From assembly GCA_963770765.1 (NCBI GenBank), contig CAVYQS010000005.1, positions 205,242-269,241 of the forward strand: a DNA stretch of 64,000 bases, given 5' to 3'. Source of the stretch: an uncultured Actinomycetes bacterium (GTDB taxonomy: Bacteria; Actinomycetota; Coriobacteriia; Anaerosomatales; PHET01). This document shows, piece after piece, positions 26,269 to 58,870 of this stretch. Position 1 is the first letter of the stretch, and the number at the start of each line of letters is the position of its first letter. Position numbers and translations under genes: made by a program. Below the pieces are notes generated by a model. It was given only the letters and a program-made list of their open reading frames with translations. It was not told the origin of the DNA and made no database searches.

Positions 26269-27480
26269 GTGCGGGGGATGTCGGCAGTGACCAGGAGGGA
26301 CCGAGAGACCGATCTGGCCATGGGATTCGGCTCTCCCGAGTGCCCGGTCGACGTCACCGTCATCTTGCCGGCGCTCAACGAGAACGGCACCATCGAGGGC
26401 ATCTACAACCAGATGGTCAACGTGCTCGAGCCCATGGAACTGTCGTACGAGATCCTCTTCGTCGACGATGGGTCCACCGACGACACCTGGGAGCATATCG
26501 CCGCGGTTGTCGCGAAGGATAGCCGGGTGAGGGCGCTTCGCCATCGCCGCAACTACGGCAAGGCCAGTGCTCTGGCCAATGGATTCAGCTACGCACGTGG
26601 CGACATCATGGTCACATCCGACGCCGACATGCAGTACGACCCCGTCGACGTCGTCCGGCTGATCAACAAGGTGCGCGAGGGCTGGGACGTCGTGTCGGCC
26701 TACAAGGTGATCAGGCGCGACCCCCTGAACAAGCGGCTGCCCTCGAAGTTCTTCAACTTCTGGGTTCGCAGCACCACGGGTGTGGAGCTACACGACTTCA
26801 ACGCCGGCCTCAAAGCGTACCGTCAGGATGCGGCACGGGATCTGGTGCAGTACGGCTACGGTGAGCTCCACCGCTTCTTCATCCTGCTCGCGGCGCAGAT
26901 GGGCTACTCGGTGACCGAGGTTCCCGTTGAAAGCCTGCCGCGAACCGACGGAACGTCCAAGTACGGCGCGGAGCGCTATCTGCGCGGCGCGTTCGACTAC
27001 ATGACCGTCTACTTCCTGTCGGGTTACAAAGAGCGGCCGATGCACTTCTTGGGGACGGCAGGTCTCGTGCTGGGCGGAATAGGCACGGCCGTTCTGATCT
27101 ACCTGGGCTATCTGGCGCTCTTCGCCCAGCAGAGCCTCACGGGGCGGCCCTCACTCACCGTTGCGGTGCTGTTCATCCTGGCGGGCATCCAGTTCTTCGT
27201 CTTCGGACTGATGGCCGAGATGATCAACAACCTCGAGCGCGGCAGTGCGAGCCGCGCGAAGATATCGCAGGTGTTGGGCGTCGACCGCCGTACGAGCCCG
27301 CTGATCGCACCGCAGGTCCAGGTGGACCGCCGCCGGGCAGACCGCACGCTCGAGCCCGAGATGCAGCCGGAGCACATCCGCGACACGGTGGTGGCCGCTG
27401 CCCCGGTCGAGCCCGTGGTGCCGTTGGTCGCCCAACCCGTCGATCGCATCGAGGCGGACACGGAGCACAGCGGTATCTAG
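26269..27480 (+). CDS. GT2 polyprenol-phosphate glycosyltransferase (GtrB/DPM1-like) with C-terminal TM segments
   Basis: VTVILPALNE, LFVDDGSTDDT, SDADMQYDP. TM helices after residue ~270. Confidence 0.85.
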   Translation: MRGMSAVTRRDRETDLAMGFGSPECPVDVTVILPALNENGTIEGIYNQMVNVLEPMELSYEILFVDDGSTDDTWEHIAAVVAKDSRVRALRHRRNYGKASALANGFSYARGDIMVTSDADMQYDPVDVVRLINKVREGWDVVSAYKVIRRDPLNKRLPSKFFNFWVRSTTGVELHDFNAGLKAYRQDAARDLVQYGYGELHRFFILLAAQMGYSVTEVPVESLPRTDGTSKYGAERYLRGAFDYMTVYFLSGYKERPMHFLGTAGLVLGGIGTAVLIYLGYLALFAQQSLTGRPSLTVAVLFILAGIQFFVFGLMAEMINNLERGSASRAKISQVLGVDRRTSPLIAPQVQVDRRRADRTLEPEMQPEHIRDTVVAAAPVEPVVPLVAQPVDRIEADTEHSGI

Positions 27481-28586
27481 CGCGCCCGCAGCCTCGTGAA
27501 CGTCAGTCGGGGGTCTGCTGAGGGCGAACCCGCGGTCTCGCGCCTTCGACGAGGCCCACTGCGAAGCGGCCAGAACGCGAGGCCCGCAGGCCCCTTACCC
27601 ACAAAGGTCGTGAGCGGCCATTCGGTTGGGCGCCAGTGGTGTTTGTAGGAGTCCCCACCCCATCCGAGGTCGAAGGTCCGAGGCACTCCGGAGCACAACC
27701 AGTCGCGCATGACATGCGTGTCGAGCACCAATCCGGGGGAGTAGGCTGCGTAGTCCGGATCGTACGCGAGGAGGATCCCGTAGCGCGCGGCCCCGCGGAT
27801 GACGTCGTACGTCCCCGCAATCACCTTCTCATCGAACACCAGAGTCGACAGGACACCCTCGGTACCGAGCTCAGTCTGCCTGCGTATGAAGGCGACGTAC
27901 TCCCCGCCGATGAGATCGACGCTCAGCCCAGCGAGTTCGCGCTGCCTCACCTTGAGGTCGCAGAGGTGTCGCAGCAGATCGAAGCTCCGCTCGTCACCCA
28001 GCGTCTCTTCCTCAAACCGGAACCCGCCATCGCGTGTGAGGCGGTGGGTCTGCCTGTGCACGGCCTTCTGGCGACCCTTGCTCAGCGTCTGCTCATAGAA
28101 TTCGGGGTCCCCGCCCCCCGTGACCACGGGGACGACGCCGTGGCGATAAGAGTTCAGCGTCGCCGAGAGGGCCGGATACGCGACCGCGTCTGCCCGGATG
28201 TTGGATAAGAGCAGCGGCCGCGCCCGATTGGCTCGCTGCAGCCGTGAGACGGCTTCGCACACGAACTCGTCGGCCGAGACGTGCGTTTGCTGCGTGTCGA
28301 AGAGCACGTCTGCCGAGTCGAGGACATCGGGCAGGCCCATCCACGTGAGCACCCGGACCCCGTGTACGCGGGTCACGCACCCGGGAAAGAGCCCGACCGG
28401 GGCGTCGCCGTCGTGAAGAACCACGATCTGCGGATGCGCACCGACTCGACCGCCGAGCGTCTCGTACCAGGCGCGTGCCAGCGCGTAGGTCTGGAAGTAG
28501 GAGACGCCGTCTCGGCGCTCCAGCTCTGTCCAGCTCTCACGCGCCTGCTCGAGGCCGTCCGGGCCGCTCAGAATCGTGTAGGACAA
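27477..28586 (-). CDS. CelD/BioF2-like GNAT (FemAB-like) acyltransferase
   Basis: 369 aa. The organisation and sequence resemble Acetyltransf_6 proteins found in EPS loci. Its stop shares the CTAG with the convergent GT2 gene. Confidence 0.65.
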   Translation of the reverse strand: MSYTILSGPDGLEQARESWTELERRDGVSYFQTYALARAWYETLGGRVGAHPQIVVLHDGDAPVGLFPGCVTRVHGVRVLTWMGLPDVLDSADVLFDTQQTHVSADEFVCEAVSRLQRANRARPLLLSNIRADAVAYPALSATLNSYRHGVVPVVTGGGDPEFYEQTLSKGRQKAVHRQTHRLTRDGGFRFEEETLGDERSFDLLRHLCDLKVRQRELAGLSVDLIGGEYVAFIRRQTELGTEGVLSTLVFDEKVIAGTYDVIRGAARYGILLAYDPDYAAYSPGLVLDTHVMRDWLCSGVPRTFDLGWGGDSYKHHWRPTEWPLTTFVGKGPAGLAFWPLRSGPRRRRETAGSPSADPRLTFTRLRAR

Positions 28587-28604
28587 CGCTCCTCCTCGCG
28601 GATG

Positions 28605-29507
28605 CTACCGGGACCGGTCGCGAACCGCGGTGGTCGCGGGCGCCACCGTCTCGGCTGCGAAGCCTGCCAGCTGCAAGACCAGGTTCAAGCCGAGCAGCGG
28701 GGCGACCAAGACGATCTTCGGGCTCGTCGCGTTCATCTTGAGTATCCGGCCGTAGCTCGCGAACCGGTTGCCCACGTAGCCGCCCACCGGGACCTTGCGT
28801 GAGAACTGCCTCTTTGCGCGCCCGCGCCGATACGACCAGCTGCAGAACTCGACGACGCTCGTTCGGGCAGGGTGAACGACCGTGGCGTCGGGGCAGTACA
28901 GCACGCGGTGCCCCGCCTGTCGGAGCCGGTACGAGAACTCGGTGTCCTCGCCGCCCAGCGTCATCGACTCGTCGAAGCCGCCCAGTTCGCGAACGACGTC
29001 CGCGCGGATCGCACAGTTGCCGCTGGGGAGGTTGTCGGTGGTTCCGTCTTCGTGCACCGGGAACATCGTCGCGTAGCCGGCGCTGCCCCCGGCCGGAAAG
29101 CCCAGAGCCGAGATCGAGTCGCCCACGTACCCGGCGGGCGGGATGAGGATCGTCCCGGCGGCGGCGGAGATCGAAGGCGTGTCGAGCGCCGAGAGCAGCG
29201 AATCGAGCCACCCCGGTTGCGGCATGCAGTCGTCGTCGGTCCAGACGAGCACGTCGCCGCGTGCCGCCTCGATCACACGGTTGCGGTTGTACGCGAGGCC
29301 CCGTCGGGCGGGCACTTCGATCCAGCGCACCCCGGCGTCGTCGGTCGACTCGCGCGGCGTGTCGGTGTCCGCTGACTCGACGGCGACGATCAGCTCGGCA
29401 ACGCGGTCCTTGGGAAGCGCGAGAACGTGCGCTATCAGCCGGTCGAGCTCGGGGATGCGCTGCTTGGCGATCACACAGAAACTCACGCCGGGGTGCTCGG
29501 CACTCAC
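28605..29507 (-). CDS. Glycosyltransferase family 2
   Basis: VSFCVIAK.., WTDDDCMPQPGWL. The GTG start overlaps the upstream stop (GTGA). Confidence 0.8.
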   Translation of the reverse strand: MSAEHPGVSFCVIAKQRIPELDRLIAHVLALPKDRVAELIVAVESADTDTPRESTDDAGVRWIEVPARRGLAYNRNRVIEAARGDVLVWTDDDCMPQPGWLDSLLSALDTPSISAAAGTILIPPAGYVGDSISALGFPAGGSAGYATMFPVHEDGTTDNLPSGNCAIRADVVRELGGFDESMTLGGEDTEFSYRLRQAGHRVLYCPDATVVHPARTSVVEFCSWSYRRGRAKRQFSRKVPVGGYVGNRFASYGRILKMNATSPKIVLVAPLLGLNLVLQLAGFAAETVAPATTAVRDRSR

Positions 29508-30287
29508 CGCGCGCCGCCCTTCCCGGCAGCACGCCGCGCGGCGTCGTAGGCGGCGAAGAAGCGCCCTGATGTCTTGAGTCGGTCGAACGGAAGCCAATCG
29601 GTCCCATACACCGGGACGCGCCTGATCTCGAAGGCGTCGCCGCCGCCATGGGTCACGCTGAACCCGGCTTCGAACCCGGCGTCACGTACGGCCGCTTTAC
29701 TGTCAGGGTCGAGCCAACCGAAGGGGAAGGCGAAGTAGCGACCTTCCAATCCGTGTTCGAGGAGCGCGCTGCGCGAGCGCTGCGCTTCGGCTTTGGCGTC
29801 GGCGTAGCCGAGCGACTGCATCGCCAGGTGCCCGTCGCCGTGCGACCCGATGGTGACCCCCGCCGCGCTCGCGGCCCGCAGGTCGTCCCAGCTCATGAGC
29901 GATTCGCTGAGGTCCGTCCGGCGCCGCAGGCGGTCCAGGGGTGTCGGCTCGGAGCGCCACTCGTTGGTGCCGCCCACGTAGCGCGTGGGGACGAACAGCG
30001 CTGTTGCCGCGGTGAGGCCCAGCCGTTCGAGTACGGGCAGCGCGCGGGCCTGGAAGCTCGCAAGTCCGTCGTCGAAGGTGAGGCTGAAGCAGGGCTTCTC
30101 GGCGGGGTTCGGGGCTCAGGGGGCCGCATGCGATGGCTGCCTCGAGGGAGAGCGGCGTGTAGCCGGCGTCGAGCAGCCGCGTGAGCTGCCGCTCGAAGGC
30201 TCGCACGGTCATGACGTAGCGGCTGGTCCGCCTGTCTGACAGGTGGTGGTAGGCCAAGATCACCGGCCACTCGAGTCGCTGCGCCAT
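29504..30287 (-). pseudogene. Polysaccharide deacetylase (NodB family) with a +1 frameshift near 30097-30100
   Basis: N-terminal part MAQRLEWPVILAYHHL..GPLSPEP. C-terminal part AEKPCFSLTFDDGLASF..GSHGDGH... An extra C in a CCCC run (minus strand) separates them. Confidence 0.7.
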
Positions 30288-30289
30288 CG

Positions 30290-31180
30290 TCACCACCAGG
30301 TTCGGCCCGACAGCGCGGACAGCCGCCGCGTGTCGGCCAGGGACAGCCGCCTGCTCGCGTCGGCGCGGTTCGCACCCCAGTCGCCCACGCTGCGCACGAC
30401 CGTCTGCCACGTCTCACGCAGGTGCCCCTTGCGCGCGGCCGCGAGCAGCCCGTAGCCGATCCAGATCGCCGCGTGTACCTGCGCGTAGGGTGCCGGCAGG
30501 TAGCGCGCCGCAAGCCGCATTCGGATCTCGACATAGCCGGACTCGCGGTCGCCCGTGTTCTGCGGGCTGGGAATCGCCAGGTGCACGAACCGGATATCGG
30601 GTGCGAACAGGATACGTTTGTGCGCCTTGATGAAGCGCACCGAGACATCCTGCTCCCACGCGTAGTACTCGACGTCCGGATAGCCGCCCACATCGCGAAG
30701 GCTCTGCGCCCGAAAGGCGACCGCGCCTCCCAAGAACAGCCCGATGTCGGTGGGCTCGGTGGGCATCCGTTTGCTGCGCAACGGGATCTCCCGATGCCTG
30801 ATGGAGCCGTCGGGCGCCTCGACGCGAAAGCAGATCGCGGCCAGGTCGGGCTGAGCATCGAAGTACGCGACGATCCGGTCGGCCGCATCGGACTGCGCCA
30901 GATAGCCGTCGTCGTCGAGGTTGACCCAGATGTCGCCGCTCGAAGCGGCTGCGCCCTGCTCGAGTGCCGGACCGATGCCCACGCGCCCGGGGTTCTTGAT
31001 GTAGATGGTCTCGGGGAACTCGGCGAGCACCGCCTCGCGGCTGCCGTCGGTCGAGTTGTCATCGACCACGATCATCTCTTTGTGCGGGTAGGTCTGGGTG
31101 TCGATGCGCCGCAAGCACTCCAGCAATGAGTCCTTACGGTCGATGGTCGGGACGATGAAGGAGACCTTTGGGCTGCTCAT
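30290..31180 (-). CDS. Glycosyltransferase family 2
   Basis: MSSPKVSFIVPTIDR.., VVDDNSTDGS, LDDDGY. The track ORF is over-extended 5'. Confidence 0.85.
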   Translation of the reverse strand: MSSPKVSFIVPTIDRKDSLLECLRRIDTQTYPHKEMIVVDDNSTDGSREAVLAEFPETIYIKNPGRVGIGPALEQGAAASSGDIWVNLDDDGYLAQSDAADRIVAYFDAQPDLAAICFRVEAPDGSIRHREIPLRSKRMPTEPTDIGLFLGGAVAFRAQSLRDVGGYPDVEYYAWEQDVSVRFIKAHKRILFAPDIRFVHLAIPSPQNTGDRESGYVEIRMRLAARYLPAPYAQVHAAIWIGYGLLAAARKGHLRETWQTVVRSVGDWGANRADASRRLSLADTRRLSALSGRTWW

Positions 31181-31220
31181 GTCGACTATCATAGGGCAAC
31201 AGTCGGCAGGGGAGGTGGCA

Positions 31221-32651
31221 GTGCGAACAAGCGTGGCGCGGGGAGCGCTTCTCGGCTTTGCCGGGCAAGCGTGGCATCTTGCGGCCACGTTCTTCCTGTA
31301 CGCATTCCTCGCGCGCCAGCTGGGCCCCGAGCTGTTCGGGCAGTGGCGCGTCGTCCTCTCGGTGCTCGGGTGGTTCGAGATCGTGCTGTACTCGGGCATC
31401 ACCAGCGTCGCGACCAAGGCGATAGCCGAGAAGCCCGAGGACACGCCCTCGCTCGCACGCGCGACCTACTGGGGACAGGGCATCGTCGTCGCGGCGGTCG
31501 TCGTGCTGATGGTCGTGCTCGCCGGTCCGGTCGCCGGTTCGCTGTCCGACCCGGCTCTCGCCACCTACATCCGCATCTCGGCGCTGGACGTGCCCTTCTA
31601 CGCGCTGTTCATGTCCGCGATCGCGCTCCTGCTCGGCAAGCAGCGGTTCGAGCGCCAGGTCGTCGCGATGGCAGCCTACTCGACGGCCAAGGTCGTCTCC
31701 ATTGGCGTGCTGGTCGCGCTGGGGTTCTCGGTGACCGGCGCGCTCGTGGGAAACGCGCTCGCGTCCGTGGTCGGCTTCGCCGTCGCGTTCGTCCCGCTTC
31801 CCGGAAGACGTGTATCGCTGAAGTCACTCACACCGGTGGTGCGCTGGCTGTACGTGGCATCGGTGCCGTTCATCACGTTGAGCCTCGTGAGCGGCTTGGG
31901 TCGCAGCGCGGACCTGTGGCTCGTCTCGGCAACGGTCGCGAGTGCCGTCGCAGTGGGATGGTACGCATCGGCGACCGTTCTGGCCGAGGTGCCCTTGTTC
32001 ATCTTCGACGGCCTGTCCAGGGTGCTGTTCCCGTCGATCGCGCGCTCCCTGTCCGAGGACGACAAGGCTCTGTCGTCGCGCTATGCCGTTCAGGCGGTAA
32101 GGCTCGGGCTCATGGTCACGGTGCTCGTCGTTGGCCTGGTGGTGGGGAGTGGCCGGCAGATACTGGAGTTCCTCTACTCGGCGGAGTTCCTGGGCGCCTA
32201 CATCCCGTTCGCGATACTCACGGTCGCCTCAGTGGGTCGCGTGACCCAGTCGAGCTGTACCCACATCCTGATGGCGCAGGACCGCCGCATACTTGCGAAT
32301 ACCATCCTCGTGGTCACACTCGGGATCCAGCTTGCGCTGTTGGTGATCGCTGCGTCGCGCTACGGCGCGGTCGGTGCCGCTGCCGCGGCGAGCACGGCGG
32401 CGGTTTTCGCGGGCGTGTGGTCGGCCGTGGCGGTCCGGGACCTTCTGGGCTTCAGGCCGCTGGCCACCTTGGCGCGGTGCAGTGCCGCCGCCGCAGTCGT
32501 GGCGCTGGCGCTGTACAGCGTGTCGTTCCCGCCCGCGTACGTCCTGCTCGTGCTTCCCGCCGGGTCGGTCGTCTACCTTGTGCTGCTGTCCCTGTTCGGG
32601 GAGATCGGTCGCGACGACTACGCTGCGGTTCGCGCCGCGATTGGTCGATAA
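31221..32651 (+). CDS. Wzx-like oligosaccharide flippase (MOP superfamily)
   Basis: About 14 TM segments and a polysaccharide-biosynthesis-protein-like sequence. GTG start after GGGGAGGTGG. Confidence 0.8.
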   Translation: MRTSVARGALLGFAGQAWHLAATFFLYAFLARQLGPELFGQWRVVLSVLGWFEIVLYSGITSVATKAIAEKPEDTPSLARATYWGQGIVVAAVVVLMVVLAGPVAGSLSDPALATYIRISALDVPFYALFMSAIALLLGKQRFERQVVAMAAYSTAKVVSIGVLVALGFSVTGALVGNALASVVGFAVAFVPLPGRRVSLKSLTPVVRWLYVASVPFITLSLVSGLGRSADLWLVSATVASAVAVGWYASATVLAEVPLFIFDGLSRVLFPSIARSLSEDDKALSSRYAVQAVRLGLMVTVLVVGLVVGSGRQILEFLYSAEFLGAYIPFAILTVASVGRVTQSSCTHILMAQDRRILANTILVVTLGIQLALLVIAASRYGAVGAAAAASTAAVFAGVWSAVAVRDLLGFRPLATLARCSAAAAVVALALYSVSFPPAYVLLVLPAGSVVYLVLLSLFGEIGRDDYAAVRAAIGR

Positions 32652-32658
32652 GACATTC

Positions 32659-34320
32659 GTGAGGATTACCGCTGCGACATCCACCGGTGCTCCCGGCATA
32701 AGGCGGCTGCTCGACGATCCCGTCGAACGGCTGACGCTGCTGTCCTTGATCGGGCTCACGATACTCGGCGCGGCGCTGAGGTGGATCTCGATCGACAGCA
32801 GGGGGCTGTGGCTCGACGAGGCCGTCACCGTGGTGCAGGCCCGGCGAACCATCCCGCTCATCATCGAGACCGTCGCCCAGGGCGTCCATCCGCCGCTGTT
32901 CCACATCCTGATGCACTTCTGGGTCACGGTCTTCGGCGTATCCGAGGCTGCGGTTCGGAGCTACGCATCGGTGTGGGGCACCCTGTCGATCCCCGCGGCG
33001 TACTGGGCTGCGCGCTCCTTCTACGACCGCCGCAGCGGCCTCATCGCGGCCCTCATCGTCTCGGTCTCCCCGTACCTGATCTGGTTCTCGCAAGAGGCGC
33101 GCATGTACTCGATGCAGCTGTTCTTCGCGTTCCTGAGCTTGGGCTTCCTCAAGCTCGCCTGCCGCCACAACCGGCCCCGGTACTGGGTCGGCTACGCCCT
33201 CGCGACCGCACTCGGCATGTTCACGCACTACTTCTTCGCGTTCCTCGTGTTGGGGCAGGGACTCTACTTCGTGATCGTGGAGGTCCTCGTCGTCCACACG
33301 CGCCTGAGGCGCGAGGGGCGGGCGATCTCCTCGTGGCGGCGCCCCTGGAGGCTGTTCGAAGAGATCCCCAAGCTCGGGCCGTGGCTGATGTGCGTCGCGT
33401 TCATCGGCGTGCTCTACGGAGTGTGGCTGAGCCGCTCGGTGTTCTTGGGCGACGGTAATCCGCTGCTCGTCTCGGCGGGCGGCGGTGGCCTGGGGTACGG
33501 CCAAGTCGCGCCCGAGTGGAGGCTGCGTTTCGCTGAGGTCGGCACCATCGTGATCGAGATGATGTTCGGCTTCCACCCGCTGTGGCTCACGACCGCGGTG
33601 GTCGCGATGTGGCCCGTCGTCATCTACGCGGTGCTCGCGCTCCTCGACTACATGGAGTTCCTCGCACGACGGTCCACGATCGCGCTGTGGGCCACGATCG
33701 GCCTCGTGGTCCTGGCTGTCCTGGGCCAGTGGCAGGGTCAGGCCCTCGCGTCCCGCTACTACATATCGCTCGCTGCGCCCATGGTGATCCTCGTCGGCGG
33801 GGTCCTGGGGGCCATGGCGACGGGCCGGCGCCGCGGGTTCCTCATCGTGGGGGTGCTGATCAGTATCGCCGCATGGGGAAGCCAGTCCTACAACCCGCAG
33901 ACCACCGTGCGGTTCGAGTACCGAGAAGCGCTCAACACGATCGTCGACCAGTCCCAGCCCGGCGACGTCGTCATCTACGAACCGCTCTACCTCGACCCCG
34001 TGATGCTGTACTACGTGCCCCCCGAGATCCCGGCGTATCCCTTCCCGCAATACACCGCGGAGGGCGACGAGCGTCGGGCTCCCGCCGAGATCCGTGCCGA
34101 CTTGGAGCGTACGGTGGGACCCGCGCAGCGTGTGTGGGTGGCTCTGGGCTTCCGCGAGATCCCGGTGGTCAACGAGGATGCCATCAATACGCTCGCGTGG
34201 TTCGAGGACGAGGGCTTCGCGCTGAGCGCGACCTACGAGTTCAATCGGATGCAGGTCTATCTGTTCGAGCGCATGTACGATACGAGAGCGCCCGTCGACT
34301 TGCTGGAGGTGACGCCATGA
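32659..34320 (+). CDS. GT-C fold glycosyltransferase (GT39/ArnT/PMT_2-like)
   Basis: GLWLDEAVTVVQA.., HPPLFHILMHFW, polytopic N-terminal half and a soluble C-terminal domain. Confidence 0.8.
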   Translation: MRITAATSTGAPGIRRLLDDPVERLTLLSLIGLTILGAALRWISIDSRGLWLDEAVTVVQARRTIPLIIETVAQGVHPPLFHILMHFWVTVFGVSEAAVRSYASVWGTLSIPAAYWAARSFYDRRSGLIAALIVSVSPYLIWFSQEARMYSMQLFFAFLSLGFLKLACRHNRPRYWVGYALATALGMFTHYFFAFLVLGQGLYFVIVEVLVVHTRLRREGRAISSWRRPWRLFEEIPKLGPWLMCVAFIGVLYGVWLSRSVFLGDGNPLLVSAGGGGLGYGQVAPEWRLRFAEVGTIVIEMMFGFHPLWLTTAVVAMWPVVIYAVLALLDYMEFLARRSTIALWATIGLVVLAVLGQWQGQALASRYYISLAAPMVILVGGVLGAMATGRRRGFLIVGVLISIAAWGSQSYNPQTTVRFEYREALNTIVDQSQPGDVVIYEPLYLDPVMLYYVPPEIPAYPFPQYTAEGDERRAPAEIRADLERTVGPAQRVWVALGFREIPVVNEDAINTLAWFEDEGFALSATYEFNRMQVYLFERMYDTRAPVDLLEVTP

Positions 34321-35864
34321 TCGAGATCGCGCGATCGCGGCGCCCCTCGTATCTCGTGATCTGTCGGGCCCTTTCGGTCCTGTCGGGAATCGCGGCCATC
34401 GTCTACCTCAAGTGGTTGCTGTTCGACGCCCGGCCCGACAACTACATCCTCTACGGCATGCTGGTCGCCGCCGAGCTGTTCAACGTCGCACAGGCGTCAG
34501 GCTACTGGCACACGATCATCACGCAACAGTGGGTCGAACCCCCGACGCCGAACTTCTCGAAGACCATGGAGAGCGTCGACATCTACGTGACCGTCTTCGG
34601 CGAGCCGGCCGATATCGTGGAGCGCACCGTCGCGGCCGCGGCCGCGATACGCCACCCACGCAAGACCGTGTACGTGCTCGACGATGGCAGCTCGCCGGCG
34701 ATCCTCAAGATCGCGCGGCGTCACCGGGCGAAGTACCTGACCCGCCCCACGAACCGCGGGGCGAAAGCGGGCAACATCAACGACGCCATGAAGCGCACCG
34801 ACGGGGACTACATCCTGGTCTTCGACGCCGACCACGTCGCGGCACCGGAGTTCCTCGAAAGGACTCTGGGAGTCTTCTCGGACATCACGGTGGCGTTCGT
34901 TCAGACGCCACAGGTCTACTGGAACAAGCCGATCAACCGTGTCGCTGCGGGCTCCAACGATCAGCAGGGCGTCTTCTACGGCGCGATCATGCGCGGGAAG
35001 AACACCACCGGCTCGGCCTTCGCCTGCGGCACGAACGTGGTCTATCAGCGTGCCGCCCTTGAGGAGATCGGCGGAATGCCCGAGGACTCCATCACCGAGG
35101 ATCAAAGGGCGTCCCTGCTCTTCCTCGAAAGAGGCTACCGGTCTGTCTACGTGCCCACGGTCCTTGCCCGCGGCATGGGCCCGGTCGACGTCGGCAGCTA
35201 CTTCAACCAGCAGTTCCGATGGGCCCGCGGGTCGTTCGACATCATGTACCACCACAAGCCGTTCTTCCGCGGGATGCCGTTCGTCACGCGCTTCCAGTAC
35301 TTCCTGTGCTTCCTGTACTGGTTCAGCGGCTGGGCGTACGTCGCGTACATGGTCCTGCCCGTGGCGTACCTGTTCTTCGGGTTGCGGCCGATCCAGGTGC
35401 CTAACGACTACCCGGTGTACTTCCTGCCCTACATCGTCATCTCGCTGGTCACCATCGGCTACTCCACCGACTTCAAGATGAGCTTCGCCGGTCTGTGGTT
35501 CACGCTGGCGTCGTTCCCCGTGTTCATCAAGGCATCCATCGTGGCGCTCAGCCGACGACCGGCCAAGTTCGTCGTCACGTCGAAGGAGGCCGGCACGCGG
35601 ACCTTCAGGCCGGTGCGGATCCAGATCGCGGTGGTCGCCTTGCTGCTCGCCGCGATCGTGCACGGCATCTACCGGTTCGGGTTCGTTCCTGCGACGATGA
35701 ACAACGTCGCGATCGCCCTCGGGCACATATTCATAATCCAGGGGTTCATTCGCTACTCGTACCGCCCGGAGGCATCCCGAATGAACACGGTCGACATCTT
35801 CGACGTGGAACCCCGGCGCAACCCGCCCGGTATCGCAGAACTGATCGAAGGTGAGAGCGCATGA
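34317..35864 (+). CDS. Processive GT2 synthase, cellulose-synthase (BcsA/CesA)-like, with no PilZ domain
   Basis: VLDDGS, FDADH, AFACGTNVVY, ITEDQRASL (TED), QQFRWARG (QxxRW). ATGA overlap with the GT-C gene. Confidence 0.85.
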   Translation: MIEIARSRRPSYLVICRALSVLSGIAAIVYLKWLLFDARPDNYILYGMLVAAELFNVAQASGYWHTIITQQWVEPPTPNFSKTMESVDIYVTVFGEPADIVERTVAAAAAIRHPRKTVYVLDDGSSPAILKIARRHRAKYLTRPTNRGAKAGNINDAMKRTDGDYILVFDADHVAAPEFLERTLGVFSDITVAFVQTPQVYWNKPINRVAAGSNDQQGVFYGAIMRGKNTTGSAFACGTNVVYQRAALEEIGGMPEDSITEDQRASLLFLERGYRSVYVPTVLARGMGPVDVGSYFNQQFRWARGSFDIMYHHKPFFRGMPFVTRFQYFLCFLYWFSGWAYVAYMVLPVAYLFFGLRPIQVPNDYPVYFLPYIVISLVTIGYSTDFKMSFAGLWFTLASFPVFIKASIVALSRRPAKFVVTSKEAGTRTFRPVRIQIAVVALLLAAIVHGIYRFGFVPATMNNVAIALGHIFIIQGFIRYSYRPEASRMNTVDIFDVEPRRNPPGIAELIEGESA

Positions 35865-35915
35865 TGCTCGGCACTCACGAGAACACGTCGCGAACGGACT
35901 CTCGGCCGCCGGCGG

Positions 35916-37100
35916 GTGTCCCCGGCCATCGGCCTGTGCGTGGTCATCGCAACCGCAGCGGCCCTGCTCTCGGGCTGTGCTGAGCAACCGAGGGGGGCCC
36001 TGTCCGACCCGGACTTCGTGCCCGACGAGTACGCTGTCGTGACCACGCCCACGGTGCCGCTCGCGGGGGTGGTCGCACCGCCGGAGACCGGCGCGTTCGC
36101 GGGCGTCTTCAGGCCGCCGGCACCGCTCGATATGGCGCGCTTCGACGCCTACGTCGACATGACCGACAGGGACCCGGCGATCTTGATGTGGTTCCAGCCG
36201 TGGGCGCAGACGGAGACCGCTCCCTACCGGTTCGATGCGGCTGCAGTCGTCGCCACGATGCGCCGGGGGGCCATCCCCATGATCTCGTGGGAGCCGTGGG
36301 ACCCGGGTACGGATCCCGGGTTGCTCGACCGGCCCGACGATCAGTCGGACTTCCGGCTGCAACGCATCGTCGACGGCGAATTCGACGCCTACATCCGCGA
36401 ATGGGCCAAGGGCTGCGCGACGGTGGGCGGACCGATCATGCTGCGACCCATGCACGAGATGAACGGCAACTGGTACCCGTGGAACGGGTTCGTGAACGGC
36501 AACTCGCCGAAGCTCTACATCGCCGCATGGCGCCACGTCCACGACATCTTCGTCGAGGAGGGGGCGACCAACGTCACGTGGGTCTGGAGCGTCAACCACA
36601 CGAGTGGCCCCGACGTCGCGAAGAACTACCCCGAGGTCTACTACCCCGGCGACGCGTACGTGGACTGGATCGGCATAAGCGGCTTCAACTGGGGGAACTC
36701 GAGACCCGGCCTGAGCTGGAGCAGCTTCAGGAAGACCTACGATGCGTCGATCGAGTATCTCAGGCGCTACGGCAAGCCGATGGCGATCTGCGAGTTCGCC
36801 AGCGTCGAGGCACCGGGCGACAAGGCCGAGTGGATCGCCGACGCCTATGAGCGGATCCGAACGGAGTATCCCGAGATCAAGGCGGTCATCTACTACGACA
36901 ACCTCGAGCAGGGCGTGAAGGGCAAGCAGGACTGGAACGTGGACAGTTCGCCCGAGAGCCTGGCCGCCTACAAGGAGGCGATCGGCGATCCGTACTTCGT
37001 GGGGGCGGTCGCACCGACTCTTGAAGAATGGTCCGCTCAGCTGGACCCGAAACACTGGGCCTACCTGCTGAGCATCCGAAGGATCTACTACGCCGATTAG
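35916..37100 (+). CDS. GH26-like glycoside hydrolase, lipoprotein
   Basis: Lipobox AALLSGC, MHEMNGNWYPWNG, CEFASVE. The true start may be ATG 35861 in another frame (see finding). Confidence 0.75.
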   Translation: MSPAIGLCVVIATAAALLSGCAEQPRGALSDPDFVPDEYAVVTTPTVPLAGVVAPPETGAFAGVFRPPAPLDMARFDAYVDMTDRDPAILMWFQPWAQTETAPYRFDAAAVVATMRRGAIPMISWEPWDPGTDPGLLDRPDDQSDFRLQRIVDGEFDAYIREWAKGCATVGGPIMLRPMHEMNGNWYPWNGFVNGNSPKLYIAAWRHVHDIFVEEGATNVTWVWSVNHTSGPDVAKNYPEVYYPGDAYVDWIGISGFNWGNSRPGLSWSSFRKTYDASIEYLRRYGKPMAICEFASVEAPGDKAEWIADAYERIRTEYPEIKAVIYYDNLEQGVKGKQDWNVDSSPESLAAYKEAIGDPYFVGAVAPTLEEWSAQLDPKHWAYLLSIRRIYYAD

Positions 37101-37261
37101 GGCCGCCGGAGGTACGGAGGGCGCACGACCGTCTGCCGTGCGCACCTTCGCGAGTGACGAAAGTCACAGTCGCAGGTCAAGCCGGCTACGCGAGCGGCCG
37201 ATAACAAGGAGCGTGGAGAACGAAGGCCCGAGGGCCTTCCCGACCACTCACTGACAACCCG

Positions 37262-37340
37262 ACAAAGGCAAACCCGTCGCGAGGCGGGGGCGCAAAACCA
37301 AGGGTCTCTCGCGAGAGACAGCCTAGTTGCCGAAGGTGAT
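37262..37340 (+). promoter_or_regulatory. Candidate c-di-GMP-I (GEMM-I) riboswitch
   Basis: ACAAAGGCAAACC-CGUC-GCGA-GGCG-GGGGCGCAAAACC-AAGG-GUCUCUC-GCGA-GAGAGAC-AGCCUAGUUGCCGAAGG. Compare the Vc2 core GGCAAACC..GAAA..GGGACGCAAAGCC...AGC.GGGUUACCGA. The GAAGGUGA SD follows immediately. Confidence 0.6.
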
Positions 37341-37344
37341 CGTC

Positions 37345-38694
37345 TTGAAGAAGCTCCCCGCTGTCTTGTGCGCGGCCGTGCTCGTCTCGGCCGTCCTCGC
37401 CTCTCCGGCCCCCGCGTTCGCCGCCTCCAAGCTGCGGGTCAGCACCACGGTCAAGCCCGTGGTGAAGTCGGGCGCCACCGGAAGAGTAGTGGTCAAGTCG
37501 AAGTCGACGCGTCCGGCGAAGTTCAAGGTCACCGTCTACAAGAACGGCAAGCGCATTCGGACGATCAAGCCCAAGGGCACGTGGTATCGCAAGAGCACTA
37601 CGTGGAACCTTCGCGACTCGAATGGCAGGAAGGCTGCGGCGGGTGTCTACACGGTCAAGGTCACCGCGACGCGGAACGGCCGGTCCGTGAGCAAGGTCAG
37701 GCGGATCCGCGTGGTGAAGCCCGCCCCGAAGCCGGTTCCCGCGACCCCGCCCACGGTCTCTCCCGAGCCGGAGCCTACCTACCCCAGCCCTGACCCCTCC
37801 GCACCCGGAGCCCCGGTGACACCGGTGGTCAATCCGGCCGCAAGCTCCCCGCGCTGGGTCGGATTCTACGTCCCCGGCGTTCCCGGCAGCATGAGCCCCC
37901 TCGATGCCGTGGAGAACGCGACCGGAGCCGATTCGGCCGTCGTCAACTTCTTCATCAGCGACAGCGAGAGGTTCCCGGCATCCCGTTGCGAGAACGTGGC
38001 CGAAGCGGGTGCGGTGCCGCTCGTCACCCTTGAGTTCTGGTCGATCCAGAACTCAGGCGGCCTCGCCGCGATCAACAACGGCAGCAAGGACGCCTACCTG
38101 CGCACGTTCGCGGATGCAGCGAAGGCGTATGGGGGCGAGGTCTGGCTTCGCCCGTTCCATGAGATGAACGGCAACTGGTACCCGTGGTGCGGGACCGTGG
38201 GCAACAATACCCCCGCACAGCTCGTCACGGCATGGCGTCACGTGTACGACGTCTTCCAGTCCCGCGGTGCCACCAACGTCAAGTTCGTCTGGTGTGCGAA
38301 CGTCGACAGCGTCCCCAACACGACCGCGAACCAGATCGCGAAGTTCTGGCCGGGCGACGCCTACGTGGACTCGGTCGCCCTCGACGGCTACAACTGGGGC
38401 GTCACGTCGGCGTCGTGGTCCTCGTGGCGCAGCTTCGGCAGTATCTACGGACCCGCGTACAACACGGTCACGGCCCTGACCTCGAAGCCGCTGTTCATCG
38501 CCGAGATAGGGTGCTCGGAAGTGGGCGGCAGCAAGGCGGCATGGATCACCGACATGTTCAAGTCGATCACGAGCACCTACACGCGCGTGCGAGGCGTGGT
38601 CTGGTTCGAAGTCGACAAGGAGCAGGACTGGCGTGTGACCGCCTCGAGTGCGAGTACCGCCGCATACCGAAACGCAGTGACGGCCGGCTACTGA
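37345..38694 (+). CDS. Secreted GH26-like glycoside hydrolase with N-terminal Ig-like (FlgD-Ig-like) domain and Pro-rich linker
   Basis: Preferred TTG start gives MKKLPAVLCAAVLVSAVLASPAPAFA. Also VYTVKVTATRNG and FHEMNGNWYPWCG. The track start at 37327 lies inside the riboswitch. Confidence 0.75.
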   Translation: MKKLPAVLCAAVLVSAVLASPAPAFAASKLRVSTTVKPVVKSGATGRVVVKSKSTRPAKFKVTVYKNGKRIRTIKPKGTWYRKSTTWNLRDSNGRKAAAGVYTVKVTATRNGRSVSKVRRIRVVKPAPKPVPATPPTVSPEPEPTYPSPDPSAPGAPVTPVVNPAASSPRWVGFYVPGVPGSMSPLDAVENATGADSAVVNFFISDSERFPASRCENVAEAGAVPLVTLEFWSIQNSGGLAAINNGSKDAYLRTFADAAKAYGGEVWLRPFHEMNGNWYPWCGTVGNNTPAQLVTAWRHVYDVFQSRGATNVKFVWCANVDSVPNTTANQIAKFWPGDAYVDSVALDGYNWGVTSASWSSWRSFGSIYGPAYNTVTALTSKPLFIAEIGCSEVGGSKAAWITDMFKSITSTYTRVRGVVWFEVDKEQDWRVTASSASTAAYRNAVTAGY

Positions 38695-49182: not shown

Positions 49183-49521
49183 ATGACCGCTCGGGTGACC
49201 ATCTCACTGCCTGACGACCTCCTGGCCAAACTGGATGCAGACGCCGAAGCCCTCGGAGTGGCGCGAAGCGAGCTCGTGCAAGAATCCATCGCGTCGTACC
49301 TGGGCAAGAGCGCCGATGAGCGCGCGCAAGAGGCCCGCAGACAGCGCATGCTTGAGGCGCTCGAGGGCATGCGGACGTTCCATGAGCGCTACCCTGTGCG
49401 CGACGACAGGCCATCACTCGAGATCCTACGTGAGGTGCGCGAGACCGACGACTCCGCCCCCATGCGCGACATCCGGAAAGGTCCAGACGGCGCGCCGCGT
49501 CGTGGGGGGAATCTCGGATGA
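49183..49521 (+). CDS. vapB: CopG/RHH antitoxin (VapB-like)
   Basis: MTARVTISLPDDLLAKLDADAEALGVARSELVQESIASYL. ATGA overlap with the PIN gene. Confidence 0.75.
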   Translation: MTARVTISLPDDLLAKLDADAEALGVARSELVQESIASYLGKSADERAQEARRQRMLEALEGMRTFHERYPVRDDRPSLEILREVRETDDSAPMRDIRKGPDGAPRRGGNLG

Positions 49522-49923
49522 GCCATGGGGAGGCGGTCGTCTTGGATGCCTCAGTGGGTGTGAAGTGGTTCAAACGTGAGGCTGGGCATGAAGCCGCCCG
49601 CGGTCTCTATCTTCGCGCGGCATCAGGCGAGATCGACTTGACTGCTCCGACTCACTTCGCGCATGAGGTGCTCTCAGTCGTTCAGCGCGAGATGACCGCG
49701 CGTGCCGTTCCCGAAGCGTGGAGCCGTCTCAATCAATCGGGCATCACGCTCGTGCCGCTGAGCAACGAGGTCGTCACCGAGGCGGCCGCTCAGGCCGATG
49801 CGCTTCGCTGCTCGTTCTACGATGCACTCGCTCCCGCGTGTGCTGCGCTGCTGGGCGCGACTCTGTACAGCGCGGACGCGCGCGCCCACGGCGACTATCC
49901 CGGACGTCGTCATCATCGGCTGA
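49518..49923 (+). pseudogene. vapC: PIN-domain toxin (VapC-like). A 1-nt insertion near 49898-49903 removes its stop and fuses it in silico to the ATPase ORF.
   Basis: AVVLDASVGVKWF..FYDALAPACAALLGATLYSADARAHGDYP. Dropping one G from CCCGGAC gives ..PDVVIIG* ending at 49923, parallel to the module 1 tail ..VEGVRLV*. Confidence 0.65.
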
Positions 49924-50003
49924 TTCGGGGGAATACCTGTTGGGGGGCGCCCGCACATCCGCGGATGGCGCTGCCAGGCACCGGATTCGGGGCGCGGCCA
50001 CTC

Positions 50004-52865
50004 ATGGCGGACCGCAGTGAGTCACCCAGCATCGAGCAGTACTCGGCACTCTCCACGGCCGAGGTGCTGTCGGCTCTGGGCGCCTCGGCGAGCGGCCTGA
50101 CGAGCGCCGCAGCGGCAGAGCGGCTTGGGGAGCACGGTCCCAACGAGATCCGCGAGGTGGTGGGACGCCCGCTGATCCTGAAGTTCCTGGGCAACTTCTA
50201 CCACCTGTTCGCGATCATGCTGTGGGTGGCGGGGGCGCTCGCCTTTGTCGGCGGTCTGCCGGAGCTCGGGTGGGCGATCTTCGCCGTCATCGTGATCAAC
50301 GCGGTCTTCTCGTTCTGGCAGGAGTACCGCGCCGAGAAGGCCACGGAGGCGCTCAAGCGGCTGATCCCCCGGCAAAGCAAGGTGATCCGCGACGGGGCGA
50401 CCGTGCTGGTCGACGCTTCCACCCTGGTACCCGGCGACCTCATGGTGCTCGCTGAAGGCGACGCGATCTCGGCCGATGCGCGTCTCGTCGAGGAGTTCGA
50501 GCTGCGTACCGACAACTCCACCCTCACCGGCGAGTCTGCGCCTGTGCGAAAGACCGCCGGTCCCAACGCCGACTCGTCACTCACCGCCGTCGAGATGCCC
50601 AACATCGTGTTCGCGGGTACGTCGGTGGCGTACGGGAGCGGCAAGGCGGCGGTCATCGCCACCGGCATGAACACGCAGTTCGGCAAGATCGCTGAGTTGA
50701 CGCAGGGAGTCGCCGACGAGCTGAGCCCGCTACAGAAGGAGATGACCAAGGTCACCGAGCTCGTGGCCATCCTCGCGACCGCGCTCGGCGTGGTCTTCTT
50801 CCTGCTTGGCTACTACGTCGCCGGGCTCACGCTCGTGGAGGGTTTCATCTTCGCCGTGGGTATCATCGTCGCCAACGTCCCCGAGGGGCTGCTGCCCACG
50901 GTCAGCCTGTCGCTCGCGATGGCGGTCCAGCGGATGGCCGGCCGCAACGCCTTGATCAAGAAGCTGTCTTCGGTCGAGACGCTGGGATGCACGACGGTCA
51001 TCTGCACCGACAAGACCGGCACGCTCACGAGGAACGAGATGACCGTGCGCGAACTGTTCGCCGGGGGACGTTCCGTCGAGGTGACCGGGGCGGGCTACGC
51101 GCCGGCGGGGGAGCTCCTCGGCGAAGGCCGGGTACCGCTCGGTGCAGCGTCGGAGGAGCTCGGCCCCCTGCTGCGAGCAGCGTCGCTGTGCAACAACTCC
51201 CGACTCATCCCGCCGAGTGAGGAGACGCCGTCGTGGACCGTCCTGGGTGATCCCACCGAGGCGGCGCTGCTCGTCGCCGCACGCAAGGCCGGCTTCGACT
51301 ACGAACGCGAACTCCAGCACCGCCGCAGGGTCATGGAGCTGCCGTTCGACTCGGTCCGCAAACGCATGGCCACCGTGCATGTCGAGGGGTCGACCCGCAC
51401 CGCGTACGTCAAGGGCGCTCCCACCGAGGTCCTCGCGCTCAGCACGGCGTTCGACACCGGCGCGCAGGTGGTGCCGATGACCGATGAGCTCCGTCGCCGG
51501 ATCCTCGAGCGCAACGACGCGTTCGCCCGCGACGGCCTGCGGGTGTTGGCGATGGCGTATCGGCAACTCGACCCGGCCGAGGACGAGATCACCGCCGAGA
51601 CGGTCGAGCGCGACCTCGTGTTCGCCGGCCTGATGGCCATGATGGATCCGCCGCGCGAGGAGGTCGCGAGAGCGGTGGAGCAGTGTGCGACCGCCGGTAT
51701 CCGCGTCATCATGATCACCGGAGACTACGGGCTGACCGCCGAGTCGATCGCGCGCCGTATCGGGATCGTGAAGGGCGACTCGGCACGCATCGTCTCGGGC
51801 CCCGAGCTCGCCGAGATGACCGATGGCGAGCTCTCCGACGCGTTGGCGGGTCCGGAGGTCCTGTTCGCGCGGGTTTCGCCCGAGCACAAGATGCGGATCG
51901 CTCAGGCGCTCAAGGCGCAGGACCACATCGTTGCGATGACCGGCGACGGCGTGAACGACGCGCCGGCGCTCAAGGCGGCCGACATCGGCGTCGCGATGGG
52001 CATCACCGGCACCGACGTGGCCAAGGAAGCCGCCGACATGATCCTGACCGACGACAACTTCGCGAGCATCGTCAGCGCGATCGAGGAGGGTCGCGCGGTC
52101 TACGACAACATCCGTCGGTTCGTGACGTACATCTTCACGAGCAACATTCCCGAGGTCGTCCCGTTCCTGCTGCTGGTGATCTTCCGTATCCCGCTCGCGC
52201 TCACGGTGATGCAGATACTCTTGATCGACCTGGGCACCGACATGCTGCCGGCGCTCGCCTTGGGCACCGAGAAGCCCGAGCCGGGCATCATGAGTCGGTC
52301 GCCGCGGCCGCGCTCGGAACGCCTGCTCAACCGCACGGTGCTGACGCGCGCCTACCTGTTCCTGGGGCCGCTTCAAGCTGCGGCGTGCATGTCCGCGTAC
52401 TTCTTCCTGTACTACACACGCGGGTGGCGGCCGGGGATGGCGCTCGCTGCCTCCGGCACCATCTATCTGCTCGCGACGACGATGACGAACGCCGCCGTGG
52501 TGACCACGCAGATCGGCAACGGACTCGCGCAGCGCACCACGCGGCAGTCGATCCTCCGTGTCGGCTTGTTCAGCAACCGCTTCCTGATGTGGGGCATCGC
52601 CGCCGAGATGGCGCTGATCACGTTCCTGATCTACGTGCGACCGTTCGACAACGTGTTCCACCACGCACCCCTCAACGCGACCGACTGGCTCTACGTGCTG
52701 GCGCTGGCGCCCACGCTGCTGGTCGCCGATGAGATCCGCAAGTACTTCGTGCGGCGCAGGCATCCGCTCGGCGATGCGGTGCGGGGCGCGGCAGCAGGCT
52801 CGGCGACGGACATCCTCGGTGGGGCGGGCTCCGCCCCGGCCGCGACAGAGAGGACGGGACGATGA
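50004..52865 (+). CDS. P-type (E1-E2, P2-like) cation-transporting ATPase
   Basis: DKTGTLT, TGES, MITGD, VAMTGDGVNDAPALKAADIGVAMG, VPEGLLPT. Start taken at MADRSESPS. Confidence 0.9.
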   Translation: MADRSESPSIEQYSALSTAEVLSALGASASGLTSAAAAERLGEHGPNEIREVVGRPLILKFLGNFYHLFAIMLWVAGALAFVGGLPELGWAIFAVIVINAVFSFWQEYRAEKATEALKRLIPRQSKVIRDGATVLVDASTLVPGDLMVLAEGDAISADARLVEEFELRTDNSTLTGESAPVRKTAGPNADSSLTAVEMPNIVFAGTSVAYGSGKAAVIATGMNTQFGKIAELTQGVADELSPLQKEMTKVTELVAILATALGVVFFLLGYYVAGLTLVEGFIFAVGIIVANVPEGLLPTVSLSLAMAVQRMAGRNALIKKLSSVETLGCTTVICTDKTGTLTRNEMTVRELFAGGRSVEVTGAGYAPAGELLGEGRVPLGAASEELGPLLRAASLCNNSRLIPPSEETPSWTVLGDPTEAALLVAARKAGFDYERELQHRRRVMELPFDSVRKRMATVHVEGSTRTAYVKGAPTEVLALSTAFDTGAQVVPMTDELRRRILERNDAFARDGLRVLAMAYRQLDPAEDEITAETVERDLVFAGLMAMMDPPREEVARAVEQCATAGIRVIMITGDYGLTAESIARRIGIVKGDSARIVSGPELAEMTDGELSDALAGPEVLFARVSPEHKMRIAQALKAQDHIVAMTGDGVNDAPALKAADIGVAMGITGTDVAKEAADMILTDDNFASIVSAIEEGRAVYDNIRRFVTYIFTSNIPEVVPFLLLVIFRIPLALTVMQILLIDLGTDMLPALALGTEKPEPGIMSRSPRPRSERLLNRTVLTRAYLFLGPLQAAACMSAYFFLYYTRGWRPGMALAASGTIYLLATTMTNAAVVTTQIGNGLAQRTTRQSILRVGLFSNRFLMWGIAAEMALITFLIYVRPFDNVFHHAPLNATDWLYVLALAPTLLVADEIRKYFVRRRHPLGDAVRGAAAGSATDILGGAGSAPAATERTGR

Positions 52866-58033: not shown

Positions 58034-58870
58034 TCAGATCTGCGGCAGCACCTCGGCCCGTATCTGGCGGTCGAGATCCAGGATCGCGTCACAGATCTCG
58101 ATGATGTTCGCGTTGTGTGACCGCTTCTTGCCCAGCAAGGCGAGCTTGTCGGCAAGGTCGCAGATGTCCGCGATCTCCGCGGAGTTGTCGCACAAGACGA
58201 GTTCGCACGCGACCGTCGAATCACGCTGCCACATCGTGAGAGTGCGGCGCTGAACCCCGCGGATGGCGTCGTAGATGGAGTCGATGCGGCTGTCGTCGAC
58301 CTTGCCGAACAGCGCGTCGTTGCTCGACTCGTAGTGCATCAGGTCCCAGACATCAGACACGAGCTGGCGATAGAGCGAGAAGAACGTCGCCCCCGGTGAG
58401 TCGCGGCGGAACGTGGTGGTCAGCTCCGGGTCGATCTCGCGGTTGATGAGCAGCTGGGACGTGATGCGGTAGAGGTTGCGGTGCTCCTCGAGTTCGCGCA
58501 CGTACGTCGCCAGTTTCGCGTCGACCGACTCGGTGTAGATGCGGCGCAGGATGTAGTCTTGCTTGACCGAGGAGATCTTCGCGACCAGCAGGCCCAGGAA
58601 GGCCAGGCCCACCGTCACCTCGAGACCCACGAGTGCGCGGGCCCAGCCGATGGGCCGGATGTCGCCGTATCCCAGCGAGCTGATCGTCACGATCGAGAAA
58701 TAGAGCGCATCGCCGAAGCCGGGGCTTGCGGTGGTGTCATACGTGAAGACGAGCGAGCCGTGCTCGGCGAGCTGCCAGTATCCCACCGCGAAGGCCAGGA
58801 CCGCAGCGGTGAGCGCGAGCAGCATCTTGCCCAGCCCGATCTCGTTGATGACGTGGAGTAGTCGGTTCAC
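58034..58870 (-). CDS. Two-TM potassium channel family protein with an uncharacterised C-terminal domain
   Basis: Selectivity filter TISSLGYGD. The ~170-aa C-terminal region has no RCK Rossmann motif. Confidence 0.75.
   Translation of the reverse strand: MNRLLHVINEIGLGKMLLALTAAVLAFAVGYWQLAEHGSLVFTYDTTASPGFGDALYFSIVTISSLGYGDIRPIGWARALVGLEVTVGLAFLGLLVAKISSVKQDYILRRIYTESVDAKLATYVRELEEHRNLYRITSQLLINREIDPELTTTFRRDSPGATFFSLYRQLVSDVWDLMHYESSNDALFGKVDDSRIDSIYDAIRGVQRRTLTMWQRDSTVACELVLCDNSAEIADICDLADKLALLGKKRSHNANIIEICDAILDLDRQIRAEVLPQI

Follow-up and report, generated by a model that had tools for sequence, protein, structure and literature searches.

A c-di-GMP-I-class aptamer with a predicted translational switch in the leader of a GH26 glucanase-like gene of an uncultured Coriobacteriia-like actinobacterium

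In Clostridioides difficile, the secreted adhesin-releasing enzyme PPEP-1 (ppep-1/zmpI) is controlled by a class I OFF riboswitch for the second messenger cyclic di-GMP (c-di-GMP) (PMC11477304). In Vc2, the Vibrio cholerae aptamer of Rfam family RF01051, the bases G20, A47 and C92 contact the ligand, and an interhelical Watson-Crick pair is universal in GEMM RNAs (PMC4744006); the roles of the three bases are likewise given in PMC5888326, and a c-AMP-GMP riboswitch class (GEMM-Ib) is described in PMC7266159. In Actinomycetota, sigma factors of the WhiG2 type are sequestered by RsiG-(c-di-GMP), those of the FliA and WhiG1 types drive motility genes, and a riboswitch downstream of a sigma-28-type promoter is mentioned in neither of the two papers concerned (PMC8325347; bioRxiv 10.64898/2026.01.14.699351). 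Here, we analysed a 64-kb stretch of DNA (64,000 nucleotides; positions 205,242 to 269,241 of contig CAVYQS010000005.1, assembly GCA_963770765.1; hereafter the window) from an uncultured Coriobacteriia-like actinobacterium, in which an earlier note, made from the letters alone, had proposed a c-di-GMP-I (GEMM-I) riboswitch between two genes of glycoside hydrolase family 26 (GH26). We find a c-di-GMP-I aptamer in the 5′ leader of the second of these genes, GH26b, and in the same position in related loci. The best explanation of the locus as a whole, to which we assign a probability of roughly 85%, is that a monocistronic gene for a secreted GH26 beta-glucanase carries in its leader a canonical c-di-GMP-I aptamer with a translational switch. 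The riboswitch class is well known; as far as we can tell, its lineage and gene context have not been described before.

The aptamer and its conservation

When the whole window was scanned with Rfam 15 at gathering thresholds, a single match was returned, at 37258-37335 on the + strand and within clan CL00126. Its top model, RF03167 (the c-di-GMP-I-GGC variant), scored 74.3 bits against a gathering score of 59 (E 9e-16) and was aligned from position 1 to 80 of 80; a local scan of 37100-37450 returned the same aptamer at E 4.9e-18. A match of this strength is genuine and lies far outside what chance would give. A second clan member, presumably RF01051, also exceeded its own threshold on the window, and at E≤10 the local scan had two lower-scoring clan members, whereas the c-di-GMP-II model RF01786, named in the earlier note as a control, had no match within 37100-37450 even at E≤10. 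With its score above the gathering threshold, the proposed c-di-GMP-I riboswitch is thus borne out; of the proposed membership in RF01051, the class stands, but the best-scoring model is the GGC variant RF03167. The aptamer and the gene that it precedes comprise the following features.

37258-37335, + strand: c-di-GMP-I aptamer, from the Rfam alignment, our own covariance model (R1) and covariation
37260-37261 with 37331-37332, plus C37258-G37335, + strand: P1
37268-37269 with 37292-37293, and 37273-37278 with 37283-37288, + strand: P2
37273-37278 / 37283-37288, + strand: P2 stem CCCGUC/GGCGGG, with the GNRA loop GCGA at 37279-37282
37296-37328, + strand: P3, with its apical hairpin at 37304-37319
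37304-37319, + strand: palindromic hairpin GUCUCU-CGCG-AGAGAC (6 bp, loop CGCG), the apical part of P3
37264-37274, + strand: AAAGGCAAACC, direct reading
37287-37299, + strand: GGGGCGCAAAACC, direct reading
37320-37336, + strand: AGCCUAGUUGCCGAAGG, direct reading
37267, 37291, 37294, 37321 and 37330, + strand: equivalents of Vc2 G20, C44, A47, G83 and C92, respectively
37345-38694, + strand: GH26b, the regulated gene, with a predicted Sec signal peptide, an FlgD_ig-like Ig-like domain, a Pro-rich linker and a GH26 catalytic domain of CtLic26A type

The elements from which the riboswitch had been proposed (AAAGGCAAACC, a P2 stem with a GCGA loop, GGGGCGCAAAACC, AGCCUAGUUGCCGAAGG, a Shine-Dalgarno (SD) sequence and a TTG at 37345-37347) can all be read on the + strand. 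Two details required correction. The second hairpin is present, but in the form listed above and not as GUCUCUC-GCGA-GAGAGAC, and the riboswitch does lie within the span 37262-37347 first given for it, but these limits drop part of the 5′ strand of P1 and take in the SD and the start codon.

How far is this arrangement conserved? We fetched 160 loci encoding GH26 relatives, half from genomes (80) and half from metagenomes (80), picked independently of the RNA; the homologues of the GH26b protein come from metagenome-assembled genomes of uncultured Coriobacteriia and Actinobacteria. Searches with Rfam and R1 placed the aptamer in 14 further distinct loci (L001, L002, L004-L007, L013, L038, L075, L081, L083, L102, L114 and L125, with L082 a duplicate of L004), always on the coding strand and directly upstream of a GH26b orthologue. 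In the resulting 15-sequence alignment—fitted to the covariance model, which somewhat favours the structure—92.7% of cells are paired versus 33-44.5% with the 3′ partners slid, and compensatory double-sided changes occur in 10 pairs versus 3.8±1.4 in shuffles, with 0 of 500 shuffles reaching 10. An independent MAFFT alignment of 8 sequences gave the same picture of covariation. R1 scores the window aptamer at 100.5 bits; its weak matches at window positions 58127 (E 0.14) and 25460 (E 0.47) are noise, as is a match to RF02879 (E 5.1) in the local scan. Minimum-free-energy folding of 37240-37380 alone does not recover the aptamer (z = +1.1), P2 pairing instead with the early coding region in a manner that is not conserved.

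The sole public contig with an identical GH26b protein, ENA ERZ25039459 contig_24930 (L161), was compared with window 27361-48688. Overall identity is 95.8% (72 gaps); the contig has the same promoter, aptamer and SD as the window, the differences there being confined to the leader. Gene calls on contig_24930 are fragmented (the SAICAR synthase, for example, comes in two pieces), and the contig stems either from a related strain or, through error-prone assembly, from the same population.

For the binding site, we take positions 10, 34, 37, 66 and 75 of the RF03167 model to be equivalent to Vc2 G20, C44, position 47, G83 and C92, a mapping based on the Vc2 sequence and internally consistent in that C44 falls in the unpaired GAC bulge. 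The equivalents of G20, A47 and C92 (G37267, A37294 and C37330) are invariant in 15/15 copies. C37291 (C44) sits in the internal loop of P2 and G37321 (G83) in the 'AG' bulge of P3; C44 is found in 15/15 copies and G83 in 13/15 as aligned by the covariance model, L038 and L075 having AC/CC at the bulge. Because the base triad and the C44-G83 pair are all canonical, the element is, by this binding-site criterion, a canonical c-di-GMP-I aptamer on a compact scaffold, not a GGC variant, and c-di-GMP is the presumptive ligand of the 37258-37335 RNA.

Expression platform, promoter and direction of the switch

Between GH26a, the upstream paralogue, and GH26b, the following features surround the aptamer.

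37333-37339, + strand: SD AAGGUGA, directly after P1 and overlapping its 3′ side
37177-37204, + strand: putative sigma-28 (FliA/WhiG)-type promoter, with -35 TCAA (37177-37180), a 16-nt spacer and -10 GCCGATAA (37197-37204)
37153-37168, + strand: CRP/FNR-type palindrome AGTGA-N6-TCACA, a candidate transcription-factor site upstream of the promoter
37222-37239, + strand: leader hairpin GAAGGCC-CGAG-GGCCUUC; every related leader can form some hairpin

The sequence AAGGUGA is complementary to the 3′ end of 16S rRNA, and the 3′ strand of P1 (CCG) adjoins it with 0 nt between. In this region, CCGAAGGTGA is kept in 11/15 copies, and 13/15 have TTG, ATG or GTG as start codon 5-8 nt past the SD, the distance being 5 nt in the window. 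Since SD and start codons are conserved in the related copies, we place the start of GH26b at TTG 37345 (449 aa), not at TTG 37327, where the public gene call (P0001/L161, 455 aa) begins inside the aptamer. The earlier note had P1 running straight into the SD and then TTG 37345 and had read this as translational control; the anatomy and its conserved spacing agree with both. A terminator scan found no intrinsic terminator on the + strand, its minus-strand 'terminator' being the palindromic P3 hairpin and hence an artefact. Because P1 is contiguous with the SD and the + strand has neither an intrinsic terminator nor room for one, the switch is, judged by this arrangement, one that acts on translation initiation.

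Pairing may extend from P1 into the SD itself. Across an AA bulge, the GG(U) of the SD is able to base-pair with the (A)CC that immediately precedes P1. Possible partners of G37335-U37337 are A37257-C37259 or, alternatively, UCAC (37248-37251), and a constrained fold pairs 37335-37337. Across the alignment, 68% of the cells of this extension are paired (slid controls: 19-49%), and in L125 the change to GAAC/GUUC is compensatory; support for the predicted extension is moderate. L125 also carries another platform, at 2310-2380: the 3′ extension of its P1, CGAAGUUC, is perfectly complementary to a downstream GAACUUCG, which adjoins a 10-bp hairpin (CGCGCGCUCC/GGAGCGCGCG) in which the SD GGAG, immediately ahead of the ATG, is buried.

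What drives transcription of this unit? The sequence at 37177-37204 has 0 mismatches to the published sigma-28/WhiG2 consensus T(A/C)AA-N16-GCCGATAA (bioRxiv 10.64898/2026.01.14.699351); the flagellar sigma-28 consensus is given in PMC8325347. In the window, TCAA-N15-18-CCGATA has its sole match in this promoter, with 0.09 expected. When both strands of window and loci (1.75 Mb) are counted, the consensus is matched three times with no mismatch, each time 50-110 nt upstream of a copy of the riboswitch; at ≤1 mismatch, 7 matches fall into the slots upstream of riboswitches versus 33 elsewhere, a ~390-fold enrichment. The promoter has 0 mismatches in L007 and L083, 1 in L001, L002, L006 and L114, and 2, at the same distance, in L004, L013 and L081. 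In two other loci, the synthase genes are oriented divergently, so that the riboswitch unit needs a promoter of its own; it is most likely transcribed from this putative sigma-28-type promoter, with an expected start near 37211, ~45 nt upstream of the aptamer. Be it a WhiG2 factor under RsiG or a motility factor of FliA/WhiG1 type, the candidate sigma factor would point to a low-c-di-GMP or motile state.

Upstream of the promoter, TGTGA-N6-TCACA stands perfect at the equivalent place in L001, L002, L081, L083 and L114, and with one mismatch in the window and in L005 (L001 2717, L002 2800, L005 2794, L081 1830, L083 2034 and 2075, L114 3592). The palindrome matches 8 times in 15 upstream slots versus 17 times in ~870 kb elsewhere; the window match does not reach significance by itself. 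Relative to the estimated transcription start, the palindrome is centred at about -50.5, -61.5 or -70, positions spaced by approximately one helical turn. Together, this suggests a CRP-family co-regulator of the glucanase gene. The hairpins of the related leaders are mostly not significant against shuffled sequence, with shuffle z-scores mostly above -1.

These features can be assembled into a regulatory scheme. GH26b, the last gene of a polysaccharide-synthesis cluster, would be transcribed from the sigma-28-type promoter; binding of c-di-GMP would lock P1 together with its short extension, and the locked P1 would occlude the GG(U) core of the SD, leading to less translation. On this view, the glucanase would be produced when c-di-GMP is low and the cells are motile or dispersing, and the beta-glucan from the adjacent BcsA-like synthase without PilZ could be what it trims or degrades. 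The promoter, in its low-c-di-GMP or motile reading, fits both an OFF riboswitch and a dispersal or trimming role of the enzyme. On grounds of structural parsimony—a ligand-stabilised P1 that occludes the SD—we consider a switch that is OFF at high c-di-GMP the probable, though by no means assured, direction. More speculative is a double c-di-GMP lock on the glucanase, in which a WhiG2-type sigma-28 factor sequestered by RsiG-(c-di-GMP) would act in conjunction with the c-di-GMP-I OFF riboswitch, possibly with a CRP-family protein as third input at TGTGA-N6-TCACA; we think this rather doubtful. If true, it would confine a matrix-degrading 'dispersal' enzyme to the low-c-di-GMP state.

The same aptamer and target could also make an ON switch, with the SD trapped in an alternative pairing when ligand is absent and freed by c-di-GMP. 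The glucanase might in that case be co-produced with the polysaccharide, like BcsZ-type processing enzymes, a role in line with the general knowledge that hydrolases in exopolysaccharide (EPS) clusters are often required for production. When bound and unbound states were folded under constraints for 14 loci, the SD was more accessible in the bound state in five (L001, L006, L007, L083 and L038). However, these folds contain no conserved anti-SD segment, the predicted unbound partners differing from locus to locus; conserved pairing of the SD is confined to the leader segment immediately 5′ of P1, and P1 and SD are contiguous. Besides, a promoter of sigma-28 type speaks for expression in motile cells at low c-di-GMP, and the synthase operon already includes another GH26 gene, one that has no riboswitch. 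We therefore regard an ON switch as possible but clearly less likely than an OFF switch, and the same holds for co-production of enzyme and polymer.

Alternatively, and compatible with the translational OFF switch favoured here, the main output could lie in transcription or mRNA stability, e.g. via Rho-dependent termination or decay after ribosome exclusion. It is generally known that such secondary effects are common after translational repression, and L125 and L075 have longer, different platforms. Yet, with the + strand devoid of an intrinsic terminator and only ~10 nt between aptamer and start codon in 13/15 copies, a main output of this kind appears improbable.

The family label and points against the proposed switch

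RF03167 is the top model not only in the window, but also for all 14 related copies (61-75 bits versus 59), as would be expected of a true c-di-GMP-I-GGC variant with a ligand other than c-di-GMP. We take 'GGC' to mean that G47 is the defining base, going by the consensus of the model. That consensus has a conserved G at model position 37, the equivalent of A47; window and 14/14 relatives have an A there (CGCAAA), a mismatch in every alignment, and their triad is the canonical G/A/C. A true GGC variant is thus very improbable. Most likely, RF03167 wins the clan competition because of a shared compact scaffold (a GGGUC...GACAGCC P3 and no 11-nt receptor), and its label on A47 aptamers is likely a systematic mislabelling of that scaffold. 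Automatic annotation via Rfam clan competition would accordingly mislabel such canonical aptamers as the 'GGC' variant, and metagenome counts of this variant class may be inflated. A sensor of 3′3′-cGAMP (cyclic GMP-AMP) like the GEMM-Ib riboswitches would share the fold, and some G20 members bind both ligands, but cGAMP-selective GEMM-Ib members typically carry A20, position 20 is a G in 15/15 copies and the gene context is polysaccharide metabolism, not exoelectrogenesis, so that we give this reading hardly any credence.

Several observations nonetheless weigh against a canonical c-di-GMP-I aptamer operating as a translational OFF switch under sigma-28 control. The best Rfam model is that of a variant family for which, to our knowledge, no ligand is known. 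The modelled P1 is short, with a core of 2-3 pairs, and the constrained bound and unbound folds of the 14 loci show no systematic change in SD accessibility and do not fix the direction of the switch. Motif scans and Pfam searches, which covered ~45 open reading frames (ORFs) of the window and the fetched loci, found no GGDEF/EAL or PilZ gene and no sigma-factor gene, whether of sigma-28 or another type; likewise, the GG(D/E)EF motif is absent in every frame of the window and of 20 related loci, and the sequence of window and related loci contains no whiG, fliA or rsiG gene.

Gene neighbourhood and comparison with known systems

Upstream of the riboswitch unit lie the following genes.

35916-37100, + strand: GH26a, CtLic26A-like paralogue without a riboswitch, in the synthase operon
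about 34302-35864, + strand: BcsA/CelA-like GT2 synthase without PilZ (TIGR03030)
32374-34320: PMT_2 membrane protein
31098-32651: flippase

The order GT2, GH26a, riboswitch, GH26b is common to the window and six loci. Beyond GH26b lie convergent genes on the opposite strand; the riboswitch controls one gene only, the monocistronic GH26b. The predicted Sec signal peptide of GH26b is MKKLPAVLCAAVLVSAVLASPAPAFA, and its residues 173-448 match PDB 2v3g ('endoglucanase H') at E 4e-60. For the GH26 domain of CelH, which we take to be the Clostridium thermocellum lichenase CtLic26A, E values are 4e-60 with GH26b and 8e-49 with GH26a, mannanases reaching ~1e-8. E273 (in the HEMN motif) and E387 (the nucleophile) are invariant in 30 homologues. 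GH26b is accordingly best described as a CtLic26A-like beta-glucanase, with its substrate assigned by similarity.

The synthase matches TIGR03030 (CelA) at E 1e-82 over profile positions 59-548 of 714. As the earlier note had it, this BcsA-like enzyme is without PilZ: Pfam returns no PilZ domain at E≤0.01, and the alignment to BcsA structures ends at RsBcsA residue ~550 of 802, leaving ~45 query residues, too few for such a domain. The note had gone on to suggest that the locus senses c-di-GMP at the RNA level, which is apt insofar as the riboswitch stands before the second GH26 gene, but it gates GH26b only, not the synthase. If the more speculative double lock is true, RNA-level control would compensate for the PilZ receptor that the synthase has lost.

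Just past the stop codon of GH26a, a GC-rich hairpin (GCGCACG...CGUGCGC, 37121-37145) may be a terminator without a U-tract. The polysaccharide cluster as a whole is large (26269-38694) and also holds four further GT2 genes, an Acetyltransf_6 (FemAB-like) gene and, according to the gene calls on L161, a polysaccharide deacetylase gene. Elsewhere in the window, the longest ORF (49518-52865, + strand) has an N-terminal PIN domain (residues 7-122) in frame with a full P-type cation ATPase; this may be a genuine fusion, or the ORF definition may have run through a vapC-like gene lying upstream. A Fic/DOC-family protein gene (5956-6996, + strand) is apparently unrelated to the riboswitch.

What is new here is the correction of the family label, the conserved association with GH26b, and the sigma-28-type promoter with its CRP-like site. 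With these findings, the reach of c-di-GMP riboswitches would come to include an environmental, uncultured lineage that is Coriobacteriia-like, and a GH26 enzyme of lichenase type whose gene lies in a beta-glucan/EPS cluster with a synthase that has no usual PilZ receptor. They also provide a concrete case in which a single transcript has a c-di-GMP riboswitch placed in series with a putative promoter of sigma-28/WhiG type.

Like Vc2, the window aptamer is built around a three-helix junction with GGCAAACC and ACGCAAAGCC boxes, has the G20/A47/C92 triad and C44-G83, caps P2 with a GNRA loop and is located in the 5′ untranslated region; Vc2, too, acts on translation. It differs in its compact scaffold of ~78 nt, in the SD that directly adjoins P1, and in having a G, not an A, at position 43. 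Its P2 loop is GYGA (GCGA or GUGA in 15/15 copies) instead of GAAA, and its P3 lacks the 11-nt tetraloop receptor and has an invariant UCUC/GAGA helix. CU:AG is reportedly the preferred receptor for loops of GUGA type, and the invariant UCUC/GAGA pairs of P3 could serve as a helical receptor for the GCGA loop. RF03167 is the best-scoring model and shares the compact P3 with its GGGUC...GACAGCC motif, but its name-giving G47 is an A in the window and all related copies.

Of the enzymes compared, GH26b most resembles CtLic26A (C. thermocellum CelH; PDB 2v3g, 2bvd and 2cip), whose HEMN acid/base motif and nucleophile Glu are kept; in contrast to CtLic26A, it has in addition a signal peptide and an N-terminal Ig-like domain, and its gene sits in an EPS cluster, not in a cellulosome. 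The perfect match to the promoter consensus, in the same phylum Actinomycetota, is reminiscent of the RsiG-(c-di-GMP)-WhiG system. Finally, a functional precedent is C. difficile ppep-1: its product is secreted, is under a class I c-di-GMP riboswitch and, at low c-di-GMP, strips the cell of adhesive material on its own surface. There, the switch is one of transcription termination and the enzyme the protease of a Firmicute; here, a translational platform would control a glucanase, probably in the same OFF direction.

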